In this document: in pieces, positions 10,011 through 26,660 of the stretch
How positions within the stretch are numbered: position 1 is the first letter of the stretch
How the letters are laid out: each line of letters begins with the position of its first letter
Assembly (NCBI GenBank): GCA_021294815.2
Contig: CP095464.1
Span: 210,001-242,000 of the forward strand
From: Verrucomicrobiota bacterium
Lineage (GTDB): Bacteria; Verrucomicrobiota; Verrucomicrobiia; Opitutales; LL51
Direction: 5' to 3'
DNA length: 32,000 nt
Program-made: the position numbers and the translations under genes
The notes under the pieces: model-generated
The model's database searches: none
Told to the model about the DNA's origin: nothing
The model's input: only the letters and a program-made list of their open reading frames with translations

Positions 10011-10184
10011 ATGAAAGAAAAATTAATGATGAGTCTTATGGTTTTCGGTCTTGGAAGTGCACTCTTTGGTACACCGACAGCGAAACCGGGGAATGAGAAC
10101 CCGAATCCGGAACAACCGACTTGCGAAGGGCCGACTTGCGAAAAACCAATGCCCCCTTGCCAAGGCGATACTTGCAAAAAGTAA
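10011..10184 (+). CDS. Small secreted Cys-rich peptide (57 aa), unknown function
   Basis: Below the ORF-track size cutoff. MKEKLMMSLMVFGLGSALFG/TPTAKPGNENPNPEQPTCEGPTCEKPMPPCQGDTCKK: signal-peptide-like N-terminus followed by a Pro/Cys-rich 37-aa mature part. Has its own promoter, RBS and terminator on the plus strand, inserted between minus-strand operons. Confidence 0.65.
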   Translation: MKEKLMMSLMVFGLGSALFGTPTAKPGNENPNPEQPTCEGPTCEKPMPPCQGDTCKK

Positions 10185-19726: not shown

Positions 19727-19927
19727 ATGTCCGTTGAAGTTACTTTACGCAAGGGCGAGACCGTCGACAAAGCATTACGGCGGCTCAAAAAGAAGCTCGA
19801 CCGCGAATCCGTCCTAAAAGACGTACGGGCGAAGCGCTACTTTGAGAAGCCATGTGAGAAACGTCGTCGAATCAAGAAGGCTGCGGTCTTTAACAACATG
19901 TTGCGTGTGCGCTACGAGAATATGTAG
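19727..19927 (+). CDS. rpsU: 30S ribosomal protein S21
   Basis: 66 aa. [35 protein letters not shown]. Perfect AAGGAGGTGA Shine-Dalgarno sequence upstream. Confidence 0.93.
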
Positions 19928-19954
19928 GCTTTTTAGTTCATTTTAGGCATAGAA

Positions 19955-19976
19955 AGGGGGCTTCGGCCCTCTTTTT
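19955..19976 (+). terminator. Rho-independent terminator after rpsU
   Basis: AGGGGGC-TTCG-GCCCTCT hairpin (7 bp including one G-U pair, UUCG loop), running into the CTTTTTG T-tract. Confidence 0.7.
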
Positions 19977-20112
19977 GTTTCGACTACTCTGACAGCTTAC
20001 TCATGAAAGAGACCAATATACGTTCGTTTATCGCAGTATGTGATTTAAAGCATCTTGACAAAACCCACGCCTAATAAAATGGTTTTTGAATCCTGAATTA
20101 GGGAATACATGC

Positions 20113-20514
20113 ATGAAGAAACACTTTTATCTACTTTCACTGGCAATATGTCTTGTTTATCCAATTTTCGCCATTGCAGCAGGCCCTTATGATGATCTAA
20201 TGCCGCAATTAGTGCAAATTTACGGCAATATTCCGGAGGTAGATCAATTTATCGAGCTTGCCAACAAACATTGGAAATTTATCCGAAAATGGCACATTAA
20301 AATGCGGCGATCGTTGTGGCCGCCAATGTCCGAAGAAGATCGTAAAGCACTTAGGTTAATTGAAGATAAATCAAAGCCGGAACATTTATCCTCTCACCAT
20401 CCTTTTGTTGCCGACTGGTTTATTGATCACCTCGGATTATCGCCGAGAAAACAAGGCCCCCATTTCGGATCGCTAGTGAAACTCTTGAACACCCGCGATG
20501 CTACTAAAAACTGA
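20113..20514 (+). CDS. Secreted protein of unknown function (family member P1)
   Basis: 133 aa from the ATG at 20113 (the track ORF starts at an upstream TTG). Signal peptide MKKHFYLLSLAICLVYPIFAIAA. The mature region is paralogous to P3 (GPYDDLMPQLVQIYG / APYDHLREPLENLYG; FIELANKH / FISLANRNH; VADWFI / VETWFI). Confidence 0.6.
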   Translation: MKKHFYLLSLAICLVYPIFAIAAGPYDDLMPQLVQIYGNIPEVDQFIELANKHWKFIRKWHIKMRRSLWPPMSEEDRKALRLIEDKSKPEHLSSHHPFVADWFIDHLGLSPRKQGPHFGSLVKLLNTRDATKN

Positions 20515-20629
20515 TAGTAAAAATATCTTGACAAAATTTATCAAAGGCGAAGCTCCATGGCTAAGCGTTGGCGCAGAAGCTTTTGGTGGGAAGGTATTCT
20601 GTTTTCCCACTGATAAGAAAGGAAAACAC

Positions 20630-21109
20630 ATGAAGAATCATATTACTAAACTCTTATCAGTATTATTGCTGGGTGGTTCTATTTCAACTGCACTTGCTGT
20701 CAGACAGGGGCCACCGGTTCGTGCAACACACGAACACGTTTATGGCCTGCGAAACTTTTTGAGAACCCTTCACCAACAAGACGGTGTCAGCGGAGAGTTA
20801 TTTCATTTCGTCAACGAGCGTACAGGAAACATCAATCTCACCGGCGTTAGTTCCACAGATCTCGATATCTTGGTCGCCTTTTTCGTCTTACTACACCCGG
20901 AATGTATAGGGGAACTCACCTCATCGCTCGAAAGATACGGCGAGAGAACGCAGACCTGGGTTGAGCCTGGGATTGTGCATCTTTGGTCACTCAAGGAACA
21001 AATCGAGGATGGCAATTTTACCGCAGCAGAAATACGGGATGCGGTTCGTCGGAATTTTCTCACGGTGCAGGAAGCTCAAGATCTCTTCAATATGTGGCTT
21101 TCGGCCTAG
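20630..21109 (+). CDS. Secreted protein of unknown function (family member P2)
   Basis: 159 aa from the ATG at 20630 (AAAGGA RBS upstream). Signal peptide MKNHITKLLSVLLLGGSISTALA is almost identical to that of P3. I recognise no family in the mature part. Confidence 0.6.
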   Translation: MKNHITKLLSVLLLGGSISTALAVRQGPPVRATHEHVYGLRNFLRTLHQQDGVSGELFHFVNERTGNINLTGVSSTDLDILVAFFVLLHPECIGELTSSLERYGERTQTWVEPGIVHLWSLKEQIEDGNFTAAEIRDAVRRNFLTVQEAQDLFNMWLSA

Positions 21110-21197
21110 AAGAAATGATTTTTTAGGGTACGCATTTGGGTGGAAAGATTTTTAACGGAAGAATTGTAAATGCTTCTGTTATCAAGGGAAAAAATAC

Positions 21198-21836
21198 ATG
21201 AAGAATCATATCACTAAACTCATATCAGCATTATTAATCGGCGGTTCCATTTCGTCTGTGATCGCAAGCGCACCGAAATCTGTTCGGCCGGGTCCTCGGG
21301 GAAACCTCATTTCAAGGACAATGAGTGTCGCTCATGCGCCTTATGATCATTTGAGGGAGCCTTTGGAGAATCTCTACGGCAAGGATGAGCTAGGCGGCGC
21401 ACTTGTTGATAACTTCATTAGCCTCGCAAACCGCAATCACCAGCGAATTAAGGGAAACGCGACCCCCGAGGAGCTTGCACAGTTAGGTCTCCCCGCTCAA
21501 GGAGCCATCAATCCAGCGCTTGTCGAGACTTGGTTTATCTATCAATTCACTCAAATACCCGCAAAGGAACGCAATCTATATTTTGTGGAGCGCATCGAAG
21601 AGTTGAATGACAGCGATTCGTATGAAGAAGATGGTGATCCATGCGACGAAGGGGCAGCGGAAAGGACAATCGAAAACCTAAGGCAAATCCAAGAAAAAGT
21701 TGAAAAACGAGAAATTTCTTGGTCCCAAGTTGAGACACTACGTCACCTTCACTTGCTACCCGATGGTTCTAACGAGGAGGAGGAAGAAGAAGAAGAAGAG
21801 GAGGAAGAAGCCTATCTGACCGGGGAACTTGACTAA
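21198..21836 (+). CDS. Secreted acidic protein of unknown function (family member P3) with a poly-Glu tail
   Basis: 212 aa. Signal peptide MKNHITKLISALLIGGSISSVIA. The central region is paralogous to P1. The acidic C-terminus includes 12 consecutive Glu. Confidence 0.65.
   Translation: MKNHITKLISALLIGGSISSVIASAPKSVRPGPRGNLISRTMSVAHAPYDHLREPLENLYGKDELGGALVDNFISLANRNHQRIKGNATPEELAQLGLPAQGAINPALVETWFIYQFTQIPAKERNLYFVERIEELNDSDSYEEDGDPCDEGAAERTIENLRQIQEKVEKREISWSQVETLRHLHLLPDGSNEEEEEEEEEEEEAYLTGELD
21774..21809 (+). repeat. GAR trinucleotide tract encoding Glu x12 within P3
   Basis: GAG GAG GAG GAA GAA GAA GAA GAA GAG GAG GAA GAA, in frame with the 21198 start. Confidence 0.95.
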
Positions 21837-21858
21837 GTCTTGGTTTTTAATCTTATAA

Positions 21859-21889
21859 AGAGGGTCCATGTCTAGTGGGCTCTTTTTTT
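21859..21889. terminator. Probable bidirectional terminator at the convergent P3/ybeY junction
   Basis: AGAGGGTCCA-TGTCTAG-TGGGCTCTTT: a ~10-bp stem that needs three G-U pairs, followed by a T7 run. A-rich on the 5' side, so it could also serve the minus strand. Confidence 0.5.
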
Positions 21890-21921
21890 ACTGAAAAAAC
21901 AGAGATAAAATTCTACTCAGA

Positions 21922-22368
21922 TCAGCGAATGACTTCGGGAAGATCTTTTAAAAACTCCTGGCAATAAGCTTCTGCTGTACGCATCACAGAACACTCTTCT
22001 GGGGTTTTATCATTTAAACCCGATAGGTGTAGAAATCCATGGATGAGATAAAGTTTGAGCTCGTCATCGAGACCCATATCAAAACGCTTTGCTTGCTGTT
22101 CGGCATAGGCGGGACAAACGATAATCTCCCCAGCAAGACCAAACTCTGGATCTCCCGGAAAGGTAATCACATCCGTTAATGAGGTGTCCTGTAAAAACTG
22201 CTGATGGAGTGCCCTCATTCTAGATGGAGAAACGAACGCCACCGATAACACCCCGGGTCCAATCTTGTATTGAGGATTTTGATCGAGTTTTTGATAGAGC
22301 GACACAACCGCTGCCTCCGAAATAATCCATCGACGACAGTGGTTCGAAACCTCAATCGTGCGCGCCAC
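21922..22368 (-). CDS. ybeY: rRNA maturation endoribonuclease YbeY
   Basis: 148 aa, GTG start. TDVITFP and IHGFLHLSGLND (UPF0054 metal motif, with Asp where the third His is expected). Confidence 0.8.
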   Translation of the reverse strand: MARTIEVSNHCRRWIISEAAVVSLYQKLDQNPQYKIGPGVLSVAFVSPSRMRALHQQFLQDTSLTDVITFPGDPEFGLAGEIIVCPAYAEQQAKRFDMGLDDELKLYLIHGFLHLSGLNDKTPEECSVMRTAEAYCQEFLKDLPEVIR

Positions 22369-22546: not shown

Positions 22547-22987
22547 TTAAGCCGTGTATGCTGCGGTTTCCGCCTTAAAGTCAACAGGGAAATCACTCGC
22601 CAAAAGAACCGGAGCACGTTCCCAGAGCTTGTCCAAACGATACAATGAACGTACTTCGTGAGTCACTAAATGCGCTATGAGATCAAACGCGTCAAGCACG
22701 AACCAACCACTTTGAGGCTGATAATCGATGCGGCCAACAAATCCAAATCGGTGTTTGACAACCTCATAGAGCGCACTCCCTAAGGCCCGGAGGTGTGCCT
22801 CCGAGTTACATGTCGCCAAAAGAATGTAATCCGCAATTCCCGAAATCCCGTGCACATCGAAAATCTTTAGCTCCTCGCATTTCTTATCTTCCGCAATTTG
22901 AACACATATTCGTAATAAATCCTGTTCGGGCTTTTGCATAAACCTAGACTGGAGACTCAAAAAGGCGCCGCAAGCATTAACACTCAT
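22547..22987 (-). CDS. rsfS: Ribosome silencing factor RsfS (Iojap family)
   Basis: IFDVHGISGIADYILLATCNSEAHLRALG......WFVLDAFDLIAHLVTHEVRSLYRLDKLW. The start at 22987 has an AGGGAA RBS and overlaps the dprA stop. An alternative ATG is at 22939. Confidence 0.85.
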   Translation of the reverse strand: MSVNACGAFLSLQSRFMQKPEQDLLRICVQIAEDKKCEELKIFDVHGISGIADYILLATCNSEAHLRALGSALYEVVKHRFGFVGRIDYQPQSGWFVLDAFDLIAHLVTHEVRSLYRLDKLWERAPVLLASDFPVDFKAETAAYTA

Positions 22988-24092
22988 AATTTCCCTGGAG
23001 ATTTCGGCGAATTACTTGGCGTAATTCCAACATCTGCAAACGCGGCAAAAGACGAAAAACGGGGATATCGAGCGCCTCGGAAAGCGCGTCCGGCGATGTA
23101 CCATTCTGCTCATGGATGAACGCGACAATTTTTTGCTCAACCGGGTCCTCGAGTACCGATTCCACTTTGTCTTGAACGGCAAAGTCAAAACAGGCCTGGG
23201 ATACAGGGCAATTGAGCTCTTCCAGTATGTGATCCATACCCGCAACTAAAGTCGCACCTTCTCGAATCAAAGTATGGCAACCTCGGCTCATCGGTTGATC
23301 AATGCGCCCTGGCACCGCCATCACACCGTGCCCATAGTCATTCGCCAGATGTGCCGTAATCATACTGCCGCCATGCAGATCGCTCTCAATCACCAAAACG
23401 TGCGAACACATTCCCGCCAATACACGGTTGCGTATCGGGAAAGTTACTTTACTCGCTTTTTTTCCAAACGGAAATTCGGAAAGAATTGTGCCCTGCTCAA
23501 GGATCTTTCGGTAAAGTGGAGCATTTTCTCGGGGATAAATCACATCAATCCCAGAGCCTAAAACCGCAACAGTCGCATCATTTGCCCCAGACGCTAACGC
23601 ACCTTCATGAGCAGCAGTATCGATGCCCAGGGCCATACCACTACCGATTACAAACCCCATCTTCGCAAGCTCTAAGGCAAATTCACGCGCAATCTTCAAA
23701 CCGTAGACGGAAGGCTTCCTCGTTCCGACGATTGCAATATATTTTTGTGCACCAAGCGCTCCCTGCCCTTTCGCATAGAGCCCAATCGGCGGGGTATCGA
23801 TACTTTTCAGTAACGGAGGGAAGTCTGCATTCTCCTCGATCAAAAACCGGACGTTTTGGGTAATCAGTTGTTCTTTTTCTCTCTCTAGATTGAAATATTT
23901 CCGCCAATTCGCGATTCTTTCGGCTGCTTTTTTGGAGACACCGGGAACAGAGCAAAGTGTATCGTAGGAAGCCGTTAAAATCGAAACAAAATCTTCTTGG
24001 AAAAACGCGAGTAAATGACGCAACGTTGCGGACCCAACATCCTCTAAGGCGTTGAGAATCATATGCTGCGACAGAACCTCATCGATGTCCAT
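22977..24092 (-). CDS. dprA: DNA processing protein DprA
   Basis: IAIVGTRKPSVYG...A.ELAK.GFVIGSGMALGIDTAAHEGAL......VAVLGSGIDVIYP.EN. ATG at 24092 (the track uses the GTG one codon upstream). Confidence 0.88.
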   Translation of the reverse strand: MDIDEVLSQHMILNALEDVGSATLRHLLAFFQEDFVSILTASYDTLCSVPGVSKKAAERIANWRKYFNLEREKEQLITQNVRFLIEENADFPPLLKSIDTPPIGLYAKGQGALGAQKYIAIVGTRKPSVYGLKIAREFALELAKMGFVIGSGMALGIDTAAHEGALASGANDATVAVLGSGIDVIYPRENAPLYRKILEQGTILSEFPFGKKASKVTFPIRNRVLAGMCSHVLVIESDLHGGSMITAHLANDYGHGVMAVPGRIDQPMSRGCHTLIREGATLVAGMDHILEELNCPVSQACFDFAVQDKVESVLEDPVEQKIVAFIHEQNGTSPDALSEALDIPVFRLLPRLQMLELRQVIRRNLQGNYEC

Positions 24093-24137
24093 CACACATG
24101 ACGCTCGCAGAATCTAAAAAAAATGTCGAGCTCTTTT

Positions 24138-26660
24138 CTATGAAAAATCAAAATCGAGTTGAGACCTCTTATCCGGCGCCTTAACGATCTTACGGAGGTG
24201 CTTCTGAACACTATCACCCTCGGATTCTAATTTTTCTAGAACCTCTGTCGCTCGCTGAATCACCGGCATCGGCATCCCCGCCAATCGTGCAACGTGAATT
24301 CCATACGACTTATCGGAAGCACCAGGCTCAATAGTGTGGAGAAAAACAACTTCGTCATTCCATTCTTTAACGGCAACATGGAAGTTCTTGACGCGAACGA
24401 GGTCTTCGGAAAGTTTGGTCAGCTCGTGGTAGTGGGTTGCGAACAAGGTTCTAGGGCCTGACGGAACCCAGTGTTCATGTAGAAATTCGACAATCGCCCA
24501 GGCTAAACTGAGGCCATCGTAAGTACTCGTTCCGCGCCCAATTTCGTCCAAAATAATCAAACTGCTTTCCGTTGCGTTATTGAGAATGTTGGCCGTCTCA
24601 TTCATCTCGACCATAAACGTCGAGCTTCCATGGACGAGGTCGTCACTTGCTCCAATCCGCGAGAAAATTCGGTCTACAAGCCCTAAGGTACATGTTGTCG
24701 CAGGAACAAAACTTCCGATCTGCGCCATCAATGTTATGAGGGCTACTTGGCGGATATAGGTCGATTTCCCGGCCATATTCGGCCCCGTAATCAGTGTAAT
24801 CTGTGTTTCCGCGCTGCTTAATCGCGTGTCGTTGGCAATAAAATGCTGCATCTCATTTGTCAACATACGCGCAAGGACTGGGTGACGCCCTTCACGGATT
24901 TCAATCATGCGCTCCTTATTCAGGATCGGTCGACAGTAATTCCACTGTTGTGCGAGTGATGCCCATCCACTCAATACATCAATCGCCGCTAAAATATGCG
25001 CATCGGCATCAAGTTGTTTTCGAAACGATAAAACCTGTTCAACCAGCGACTGAAAAAGCATCGCTTCGCGCTCAATTAGCCGATCATGGGCCGTTAGAAT
25101 TTCACGTTCTTTTGCTTTCAGCGTCTCGGTCGTGTAGCGTTCCGCATTCACCGTCGTTTGGCGGCGGATATAGTCGCTCGGCACAAGGTGGAGATTCGAT
25201 TTCGTCACCTCGATAAAGTACCCAAAATTGTTATTATACTTTATACGTAGGGTTTTGATACCGGTTCGCGCTTGTTCCTGATTTTCAAAAGTACAAAGCC
25301 AGGAACTCGTATGATGGACCAGAGAACGCAATTCATCGACTTGCGGATCAAACCCACCAGCGATATAACCTCCCTCGCTGAGATCATTGGGTAACTCTTG
25401 TGCCAACGTTCGTTGAAGAACAACACGTAACGGCTCGAGGGAATCTATTTTTTTCGATAAAGGTGGAATCGCTTCGTGTGGCCATTGACTGAGCAGCTCA
25501 ATAATCGACGGAAGCTGTTGTAAGGTCGTACGCAACATTCCGAGTTCACGCGGATTTCGACTACGGTTACTGATGCGTGTTAGAATGCGAGGGATGTCGG
25601 CAATCGCTTTGAAGAATTGCTTTAGGTTCGCGATTTTTTCCGGTACCTCTCGGAATCCAGCAACAACATCTTGGCGACGAATAATCCCTTCTAAATCAAT
25701 TAATGGTTCCCGGACCCAGCGTTCCAGTAGACGTGCCCCCATCGCCGTTTTCGTCTCATCGAGTGCATCGAGTAAGGTATGTTCTCGCCCTCCATGGACA
25801 TTGCGCAGAATCTCGAGATGATGGAGCGTCCGCGCATCGATGATCATTGCCGTCTGGGGCTGGTATTTTCGCAACTTTTGAAGGTTATGTGGTGGCTGTT
25901 TTAGATTATCGCTGACGTATAAAATGAGGGCACCCGCAGCACCAATCGCCGGATCTTCGTGCACAATGCCATAACCATGGAGGTTGCCGACTTTTAGGCG
26001 TTCCAATAACAGTTCGAGTCCACGCTGCGCATCAAAATAATAGTGCGGTAGATCGGTAACCGTACATTTTTCCAAAATGCGCTTTAATGCCTCGTGTTCA
26101 CGCGTCGGTAATTGTTCTAGTTGCGTACGGTCATCGACATCGACGACAATCTCGCGGGGATCGAGTGCAGCTATAACGTGTTCTAATTCGCACAAATTGG
26201 GGGCATCGGCAATCTGAAATTCCCCTGTCGAAACCTCAATCCATGCAATTGAAATGTCTTTTCGATGCAGCTTTAAACTCAAGAGATATTGGTTATGCGA
26301 TGGCGTCAGCAGGTTCTCCGCAATGAGCGTTCCCGGAGATAGTATTTTAGAAATCTGGCGGCGGATAATTTTTCCCGGACGTGCAAGTTCAGTCTGATCA
26401 CAGATCGCGACTTTATAGCCGGACTGGATGAGTTTGGCAATGTAACCGTCGACCGCGTGGTGCGGAATACCAGCCATCGGCGCTTTATGACGTTGTGTTA
26501 AGGTAATGCCCAGGATCTTAGAACCAATAAGCGCATCTTCTTCAAACATCTCATAAAAATCGCCGAGACGAAAGAGTAGCAATGCATTCGGGGGAATCGA
26601 CCGTTTGAGCTCGCGGTATTGCTGCATGAGTGGGGTTAATGCGGAATCCTCAGTCGCCAT
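24138..26660 (-). CDS. mutS: DNA mismatch repair protein MutS
   Basis: 840 aa. TPLMQQY..LK......LLFRLGDFYEMF.EDA (mismatch-binding domain), Walker A GPNMAGKSTY, STFMVEM, DEIGRGTSTYDG. Confidence 0.95.
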   Translation of the reverse strand: MATEDSALTPLMQQYRELKRSIPPNALLLFRLGDFYEMFEEDALIGSKILGITLTQRHKAPMAGIPHHAVDGYIAKLIQSGYKVAICDQTELARPGKIIRRQISKILSPGTLIAENLLTPSHNQYLLSLKLHRKDISIAWIEVSTGEFQIADAPNLCELEHVIAALDPREIVVDVDDRTQLEQLPTREHEALKRILEKCTVTDLPHYYFDAQRGLELLLERLKVGNLHGYGIVHEDPAIGAAGALILYVSDNLKQPPHNLQKLRKYQPQTAMIIDARTLHHLEILRNVHGGREHTLLDALDETKTAMGARLLERWVREPLIDLEGIIRRQDVVAGFREVPEKIANLKQFFKAIADIPRILTRISNRSRNPRELGMLRTTLQQLPSIIELLSQWPHEAIPPLSKKIDSLEPLRVVLQRTLAQELPNDLSEGGYIAGGFDPQVDELRSLVHHTSSWLCTFENQEQARTGIKTLRIKYNNNFGYFIEVTKSNLHLVPSDYIRRQTTVNAERYTTETLKAKEREILTAHDRLIEREAMLFQSLVEQVLSFRKQLDADAHILAAIDVLSGWASLAQQWNYCRPILNKERMIEIREGRHPVLARMLTNEMQHFIANDTRLSSAETQITLITGPNMAGKSTYIRQVALITLMAQIGSFVPATTCTLGLVDRIFSRIGASDDLVHGSSTFMVEMNETANILNNATESSLIILDEIGRGTSTYDGLSLAWAIVEFLHEHWVPSGPRTLFATHYHELTKLSEDLVRVKNFHVAVKEWNDEVVFLHTIEPGASDKSYGIHVARLAGMPMPVIQRATEVLEKLESEGDSVQKHLRKIVKAPDKRSQLDFDFS

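Follow-up and report, generated by a model that had tools for sequence, protein, structure and literature searches.

An apparently endogenous hypervariable array of putative exported orphan proteins in gut Opitutales, with a partial copy in the nuclear genome of Tritrichomonas musculus

Several host-associated bacteria carry hypervariable loci in which tandem paralogues encode exported or surface proteins, among them msp2/p44 of Anaplasma, vls of Borrelia and vsp/vlp of mycoplasmas. Here we describe a locus that resembles them in an uncultured Verrucomicrobiota bacterium (Opitutales, LL51; assembly GCA_021294815.2), studied in the 32,000-nucleotide stretch of contig CP095464.1 from position 210,001 to 242,000, hereafter the window. 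There, three small genes named P1, P2 and P3 follow rpsU in this order on the + strand and face the convergent ybeY on the - strand (Table 1), which is the minimal three-gene version of an array that is longer in most relatives. As in the systems above, tandem paralogues share 5'/signal-peptide cassettes and appear to undergo segmental gene conversion, divergent alleles occur in near-identical genomes, and copy number changes at a fixed locus. Unlike them, the array does not pair an expression site with silent cassettes, showed neither phase-variation repeats nor an invertible promoter, and encodes proteins that are unrelated to theirs in sequence and fold: whereas the known antigens are membrane-anchored, these are small soluble helical domains, each copy having its own ribosome-binding site (RBS) and start codon.

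Comparison of the sequences leads us to conclude that the locus is an endogenous hypervariable array and not an acquired island. An exact look-up of the RpsU sequence in the whole assembly collection returned 10 contigs, and each one that is long enough carries the array at the same site, so that the locus is occupied in all relatives found (about 10 contigs from one Opitutales genus). In what follows, L002-L005 and L017-L020 are contigs of these bacterial relatives (L017 being DRR784077), and L001 and L014 are the protist copies described below. The window and L005 have P1-P2-P3 (three open reading frames, ORFs); L018 and L019 have P1-g2-g3-g4-g5-P2-P3 (seven ORFs); L003 has the same order with g4 split in two (eight) and L002 the same order without P2 (six); L017 lacks g2 and has an extra P3-like paralogue and a 61-aa ORF upstream of P1 (eight); and in L020 a 142-aa P3-like ORF replaces P1 and is followed by g3-g4-g5, the contig stopping inside the array (at least four). 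The variation that the original prediction proposed to look for at the rpsU-ybeY junction is thus real, from 3 to 8 ORFs: the position is fixed, gene content differs between relatives and the same three genes are not universally syntenic, but the array was never absent in the relatives found. The additional 223-aa P3-like paralogue of L017 (L017:7416-8087), just 27% identical to P3, shows that the array also gains members.

The locus also varies strongly in sequence. Because their flanks are 97-99% identical, L002, L003, L018 and L019 are considered to be one species; within it, nucleotide identity drops to 66-78% in P3, 57-72% in the 5' part of g3 and 82% in the 5' part of g4. For P3, at least four allele classes can be told apart, with 42-61% identity between classes. 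Identity between the paralogue types is just 25-40%, and orthologues of each type exist in several lineages (flanks about 90-93% identical), so the duplications must be older than the lineage split. The earlier proposal of a recent duplication is therefore not supported; only the exchange of the signal-peptide cassette looks recent.

P3 is the hub of the family: it was found in every complete islet examined, and g2, g3, g4 (which contains an internal duplication) and g5 all relate to it. The mature domains of P1 and P3 are homologous (26% identity, E 2e-5; E 1e-7 for P3 against the P1-type protein of L002), in agreement with the blocks that had been noticed by eye, and the motifs shared by the family are PYDxLxxxLExxYG, WFIxxxxxxPxxERxxYF and a C-terminal IxxxxxLRxxxLL block. 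P1 and P3 constitute one orphan all-helical family, which grows to six to seven members in the relatives (types P1, g2, g3, g4, g5 and P3). Of the three-gene family originally predicted, P1 and P3 thus hold, but P2 was not shown to be a member: its protein match to P3 (E 6e-11) is confined to the RBS/signal-peptide repeat region, without the signal peptide it scores 1.2-5.9 bits against the family hidden Markov model (HMM), which is not above the best of 2000 shuffled controls, and an hhalign match of E 6e-4 has 28% probability and covers a 46-column stretch in the C-terminal module only. We regard P2 as a further orphan, whose 5' cassette is of the P3 type. The near-identity of the P2 and P3 signal peptides, correctly spotted beforehand, lies in a direct repeat (Table 1). 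In the lineage of the window and L005, the 5' end of P2 (its first codons) is nearer to P3 than to the P2 orthologue of L003 and L004, which points to P2 having received a P3-type RBS and signal-peptide cassette by gene conversion.

Two peculiarities of P3 alleles should be mentioned. Alleles of class B (210-213 aa; L007:196-828, L018:11209-11850) have an extra C-terminal helix, KDQVNLLRHSLLALSDF, before the acidic tail; g3 and g4 have it as well, so that a longer helix-loop-helix module seems to have been truncated in the shorter P3 alleles. Around residues 140-155 (21615-21665), P3 of the window has a 15-residue acidic insertion, EEDGDPCDEGAAERT, that is absent from all other bacterial alleles, and the protist copy has an insertion, NDEEDGDSFDKDRTK, at the same position, which suggests that old P3 allele lineages are common to several species.

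The protein family is new and extremely restricted taxonomically. An exhaustive HMMER profile search of 1.84 billion representative proteins returned seven, all encoded at this locus; among the GTDB species representatives the family occurs in one species only; and JGI metagenomes contained no member by peptide patterns, a conserved rpsU DNA pattern being negative there as well. The lineage-specific character that had been proposed is therefore well founded, and so is the lack of a known family or catalytic motif: no curated family in Pfam-A, NCBIfam, PADLOC or PHROGs exceeded its threshold with these proteins (the best, Pet100, reached 17 bits against a 24-bit cut-off), and no catalytic motif was recognised in P1, P2 or P3. 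A fold match was accepted at a Foldseek E of at most 0.001, a template-modelling (TM) score above 0.5 or a significant PDB sequence-profile match. The best PDB sequence-profile match had an E of 0.076; the P3 model gave a best Foldseek E of 0.8 and TM of at most 0.24 in PDB, and a best E of 0.18 among the predicted viral folds of BFVD; and the P2 model gave nothing in PDB. The structural comparison, which had been suggested as a check, upholds the orphan status of P3. A C-terminal block of the form 'ISWSQVExLRxLxLLP...' bears a possible resemblance to SAP/HeH-type helix-extension-helix modules, without profile support. An identity with SAP, LEM or Rho_N was not retained: Pfam gave no match for P3 (E <= 1) or for g3 and g4 (E <= 0.1), and Foldseek found none.

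P1, P2 and P3 carry predicted Sec-type export signals. A rule-based check required a positive n-region, a hydrophobic core 10 or more residues long and a small-x-small cleavage site. P1, P2, P3 and their intact homologues all passed, with the cleavage motifs AIA, ALA and VIA; the sole failing ORF was g5 of L003, which represents the 3' half of a gene that has been split. Of 24 further proteins of the window used as controls, the only ones to pass were a solute-binding protein, LptE and a BamD-like tetratricopeptide-repeat protein, all expected exports, and the cleavable signal peptides of the original prediction stand. Processing as lipoproteins by signal peptidase II was rejected because there is no conserved lipobox ([LVI][ASTVI][GAS]C, the Cys at +1 being invariant); the 'LAIC' of P1 has Ile at -1 and its Cys is missing from the P1 orthologues of L002 and L003. 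The mature proteins differ in isoelectric point (9.3 for P1, 5.3 for P2 and 4.5 for P3, which has a net charge of -24). The acidic C-terminal part of P3, also noted beforehand, includes a run of 12 glutamates near the C-terminus; the final YLTGELD is kept in most P3 alleles, with YLTEELD in L017 and YPTGELD in the protist copy. AlphaFold2 models P3 with a mean predicted local distance difference test (pLDDT) score of 71; residues 48-185 form a core of eight helices (pLDDT mostly 83-94), and linker and tail are disordered. The P2 model is of low confidence (pLDDT 58).

P1-P3 are real, constrained genes whose rate of evolution exceeds that of their neighbours several-fold to more than tenfold, because the ratio of non-synonymous to synonymous substitutions (dN/dS, Nei-Gojobori estimates) is low while dN is far above that of neighbouring genes. 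Orthologues lie on contigs whose flanking genes are about 90-93% identical to the window in nucleotides. Against L002-L004, P1-P3 have dN/dS of 0.11-0.20 and dN of 0.13-0.23 (dN is lower against L005 for P1 and P2), compared with dN/dS of 0.01-0.09 and dN mostly of 0.002-0.03 (dnaN, 0.055) in the neighbouring housekeeping genes. By gene, dN/dS is 0.15-0.19 for P2 and 0.11-0.20 for P3; P1 orthologues are 90% identical in L005 and 68% in L002 and L003, with dN/dS of 0.18 against L005 and no ratio against L002 and L003, where dS is saturated. That the ORFs are spurious, or pseudogenes decaying in a long intergenic region, a doubt already raised in the original prediction, is barely credible. They lack known domains, g4 is split in L003 and P2 is lost from L002, but lineages with a synonymous divergence of 0.3-1.5 agree in reading frames, starts, signal peptides and motifs, dN/dS is 0.11-0.20 and P3 has a confident AlphaFold2 core.

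Synonymous divergence is itself uneven along the islet. Against L002-L004, islet dS is 0.9-1.5, against about 0.3 outside; against L005, dS is 0.27 for P1 and 0.12 for P2, below the 0.37-0.44 of the flanks, and 0.78 for P3, above them. The islet is thus a recombinational mosaic, as the shared blocks and near-identical signal peptides had led the original prediction to propose.

The same prediction considered the locus an accessory islet, and this idea, read as a horizontally acquired, mobile-element-borne islet encoding effectors or a toxin-immunity set, is very unlikely. Gene content does vary between relatives, P1 and the intergenic spacers are somewhat AT-richer, and the codon-usage scores of P1, P2 and P3 are the lowest in the window. 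However, the composition is essentially native: P1 (GC 41.8%; 39.8% at third codon positions) is modestly below the window mean of 47.9%, so that its claimed AT-richness holds weakly, but the housekeeping genes dacZ (43.4%) and AAA_28 (43.5%) are about as low, and P2 (47.5%) and P3 (47.7%) are typical of the window, which leaves a foreign origin unsupported by composition. Besides, the site is occupied in all relatives; Rfam and tRNA scans found no tRNA or Rfam RNA across the whole window; no Pfam-recognisable mobility gene lies within about 10 kb on each side, nor an integrase, transposase or flanking repeat at the loci; and no donor or homologue turned up elsewhere in GTDB, the 1.84 billion proteins or JGI.

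A second family of arrays calls for comparison. Gut Bacteroidales harbour orphan immunity-gene arrays, which are acquired interbacterial defence clusters, and by analogy P1-P3 and their relatives could be a periplasmic array of immunity proteins against periplasm-acting toxins of competitors, whose repertoire the diversity would track. The resemblance is real: both have small, often exported proteins, strain-level variation and gut bacteria as carriers, and here tandem small genes with signal peptides, variable copy number and divergent alleles encode small helical mature proteins. We nevertheless hold this explanation to be quite improbable. Unlike the Bacteroidales arrays, the locus has housekeeping neighbours, and a toxin, recombinase, mobile element, type VI secretion system (T6SS), Rhs or contact-dependent inhibition (CDI) gene adjoins the array at none of the loci; immunity families of PADLOC and Pfam gave no match; and the family is absent from all other bacteria among the 1.84 billion representatives, whereas immunity families usually spread horizontally. 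A toxin-immunity or polymorphic-toxin locus was rejected on the same grounds.

The most unexpected relative of P3 is not bacterial. Transfers of bacterial DNA to a host nucleus are known from Wolbachia inserts in insects and nematodes, from functional symbiont- or prey-derived genes of protists and from bacterial fragments reported in Trichomonas vaginalis. The P3 search matched a 186-aa 'hypothetical protein M9Y10_008409' of Tritrichomonas musculus, encoded on the 3.8-Mb nuclear contig JAPFFF010000014.1 (locus L001, around contig positions 1,242,000-1,244,200). The region has about 20-30% GC, apart from a patch at roughly L001:9342-11165 that has about 40% GC and is collinear with the bacterial sequence. 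This insert of ~1.8 kb corresponds to window positions 20623-22211 and 24102-24397 and contains, in order, L003-type intergenic DNA upstream of P2, P2, P3, the 3' part of ybeY (window 21938-22211, 86% identical) and, fused directly to it, a 3' piece of mutS (90% identical). In the bacterium these two fragments lie about 1.9 kb apart, and the DNA between them is deleted in the insert. P2 has an in-frame stop and a frameshift; P3 is intact and keeps its bacterial signal peptide.

The evidence indicates that a fragment of the locus was physically transferred into the Tritrichomonas nucleus: (i) the insert has host DNA on both sides; (ii) six contigs, drawn from four or more separate sources (ERZ13404918, ERZ28596434, three SRR59277xx runs and GCA_948735255.1), match it at 99.4-100% identity, and several of these contigs span both junctions with AT-rich protist DNA; and (iii) it is rearranged and contains a pseudogene. 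The genome paper worked on protists purified by fluorescence-activated cell sorting, lists 'whole genome amplification' as a keyword, reports the removal of contaminant and chimeric contigs and mentions neither this locus nor symbionts nor gene transfer (PMC11978803). A chimera of whole-genome amplification or assembly is unlikely, since both junctions recur in short-read metagenome contigs from other studies. Like known nuclear transfers, the insert is a rearranged bacterial fragment with an internal deletion and pseudogenes, in AT-rich eukaryotic surroundings, reproducible and with one ORF intact; unlike them, the gene kept in T. musculus encodes an orphan exported protein with a bacterial signal peptide and no metabolic enzyme, and the donor belongs to an undescribed Opitutales genus without documented protist association.

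A further, diverged copy of the protist locus (L014) allows the segments of the insert to be compared. Gaps excluded, L001 and L014 are 96.1% identical in the protist flank (28 gap columns), 92.2% in the P2 pseudogene (27), 94.7% in the ybeY fragment (0) and 98.7% in the P3 ORF (0), which differs by 3 synonymous and 4 non-synonymous changes. The conservation of P3 is significant in Fisher tests against the other insert segments (p = 2.7e-6) and against the protist flank (p = 0.007). Because P3 is far better conserved than its neighbours between the two copies, selection seems to maintain it in the protist, while the remainder of the insert is decaying. The RBS region upstream of P3 (TTCATAAAAAGGAGAAAACACATG; L001:10005-10033, L003:9975-10003) contains a TCAYW-like element shortly before the ATG that resembles the trichomonad initiator motif; it might have eased P3 expression after transfer.

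Table 1. Features of the rpsU-ybeY region in the window
Feature	Position	Strand	Remarks
rpsU (ribosomal protein S21)	19727..19927	+	conserved left flank; Pfam Ribosomal_S21 on orthologues; 100% amino-acid identity across relatives
rpsU intrinsic terminator	19949..19978	+	13-bp stem, UUCG loop, U-tract; centroid -18.2 kcal/mol, z -2.5
ATCTTGACAAAA motif, -35-like, upstream of P1	20052..20063	+	read from sequence; putative promoter element
P1, 133 aa, signal peptide MKKHFYLLSLAICLVYPIFAIA	20113..20514	+	short P3-family member without C-terminal module; basic mature protein
ATCTTGACAAAA 12-mer, copy 2, upstream of P2	20525..20536	+	read from sequence
RBS + signal-peptide cassette, copy 1 (P2 5' end)	20623..20690	+	68-nt direct repeat, 84% identical to 21191-21258
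P2, 159 aa, signal peptide MKNHITKLLSVLLLGGSISTALA	20630..21109	+	mature domain a separate orphan, predicted helical, low confidence
RBS + signal-peptide cassette, copy 2 (P3 5' end)	21191..21258	+	68-nt direct repeat
P3, 212 aa	21198..21836	+	signal peptide, variable linker, all-helical core aa 48-185, acidic tail
P3 acidic tail: E12 then AYLTGELD	21774..21836	+	sequence and allele comparison
Terminator after P3, in convergent gap with ybeY	21857..21894	+	13-bp stem + U7; -21.7 kcal/mol, z -2.6
ybeY, conserved right flank	21922..22368	-	Pfam YbeY on orthologues; 86-90% amino-acid identity

The layout first described, three co-directional ORFs with plausible RBSs between the rpsU terminator and the convergent ybeY, was recovered in full, coordinates, strand and hairpin included, and an AGGGA/AAGGA motif lies 8-13 nt before the ATG of P1, P2 and P3. 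Both terminator hairpins fold better than shuffled controls (RNA fold, z about -2.5), the one at 21857-21894 having no significant fold on the - strand. A consensus promoter/terminator scanner missed both terminators and found no full sigma-70 consensus, and promoter-like sites were no commoner than in shuffled sequence. The 19 nt at 20518-20536 recur with 100% identity upstream of P2 in L003. Gene callers lengthen P2 upstream (20498-20629) to a 203-aa ORF, both in the window and in the NCBI/ENA record of L005; this is probably a miscall and the 159-aa form correct, because orthologues of 158 aa begin at the short ATG and the position of the RBS agrees with it. Similarly, ybeY probably starts near 22251, the YbeY proteins of relatives being 106-109 aa long.

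The array has as neighbours pgi, rpsU, ybeY, rpmG, rsfS, dprA and mutS. The housekeeping genes on its right (ybeY, 21922-22251; rsfS and dprA, 22547-24095) are unusually diverged between relatives: amino-acid identity is 66-69% for RsfS (dS 1.5-1.9), 85-87% for DprA and 86-90% for YbeY, against 96-99% for MutS, ProS, LpxB and YchF. A recombination or divergence hotspot seems to extend past the islet into the right flank. Elsewhere in the window, a lone 57-aa ORF on the + strand at 10011-10184, between rplU and lpxK, has a signal-peptide-like start and a Pro/Cys-rich tail (MKEKLMMSLMVFGLGSALFG...CEGPTCEKPMPPCQGDTCKK) and may either encode a small exported peptide or be spurious.

What could such an array be for? 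With moderate confidence, we propose that it encodes extracytoplasmic partner-interaction proteins of a protist-associated bacterium, diversified at an endogenous hypervariable locus. An uncultured gut Opitutales (Verrucomicrobiota) would maintain, in tandem, genes for small orphan proteins that are exported by Sec and are all-helical or mostly helical. Genes of this array are lost, gained and split, 5' cassettes are exchanged and whole alleles give way to very divergent ones, with purifying selection acting on each gene. The proteins would leave the cytoplasm via Sec and serve as binding or interaction proteins, either in the envelope or extracellularly, and their targets would exert diversifying or frequency-dependent selection on the array. 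The likeliest partner may be a mouse-gut Tritrichomonas, on or in which the bacterium would live, or by which it would be eaten, because part of this locus entered the T. musculus nuclear genome and P3 was apparently kept there by selection. We infer the location beyond the inner membrane, the targets, the lifestyle of the bacterium and the function in the protist.

Several points weigh against this proposal. No secretion system is visible within the 32-kb window. The window encodes full lipopolysaccharide (LPS) assembly, DNA repair and DprA, so that strong genome reduction is not evident. No paper in the literature searched links Opitutales or Verrucomicrobiota with Tritrichomonas. The signal of selection in the protist comes from one sequence pair with its 3 synonymous and 4 non-synonymous differences, uptake of DNA from prey bacteria would also explain the nuclear insert, and the raised dS of the islet could result from exchange between paralogues and not from selection by a partner.

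Much of this can be read in a simpler way, in which P1-P3 are ordinary, weakly constrained periplasmic or envelope proteins, structural or chaperone-like, shaped by drift and recombination, and the protist insert is incidental prey DNA. Indeed, signal peptides guarantee export to the periplasm only, dN/dS is below 0.2 with no overall signal of positive selection, the window encodes a normal Gram-negative envelope and trichomonads are phagocytic. Yet drift alone poorly explains alleles that are 57-80% identical inside genomes that are 97-99% identical, P3 is retained in every complete islet examined although it is the most variable in sequence, and its preferential conservation in the protist nucleus is left unexplained; we consider this reading rather unlikely.

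The partner-interaction proposal can also be pushed further, and it is tempting to speculate that the window organism, with a genome of about 0.9-1 Mb, lives as an undescribed and possibly intranuclear endosymbiont in murine Tritrichomonas, that the array encodes its host-interface proteins and that P3 has been domesticated as a secreted protist protein. This is a possibility that we hold tentatively and with some doubt. A precedent exists in the 'Nucleococcus cluster' of Verrucomicrobia, intranuclear or cytoplasmic endosymbionts of termite-gut parabasalids and ciliates with genomes of about 1 Mb (PMC8204192). The case would share with them the phylum, a parabasalid partner and the gut habitat, and the longest contig on record for the P2 protein of the window measures 878 kb. 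The organism is likened to this cluster by phylum and habitat, and its intracellular lifestyle is hypothetical.

Hypervariable arrays of exported paralogues are already known as a kind of locus, and bacterial DNA in a protist nucleus as a kind of event; what is new is their combination, in which an exported orphan protein has remained conserved since its transfer to T. musculus. This protist strongly shapes mouse mucosal immunity and has no axenic growth (PMC11978803). If the endosymbiont reading is true, an orphan effector-like gene would have passed from symbiont to host in a widely used model of mouse-gut immunology. The T. musculus system would gain new players in a dedicated bacterial partner and in an exported protein of bacterial origin fixed in the protist genome, and these could be part of the reason for its resistance to axenic culture. 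The locus is also a clean example of an endogenous hypervariable array, and it offers a tractable case of how orphan exported proteins may diversify by cassette exchange and allele replacement.

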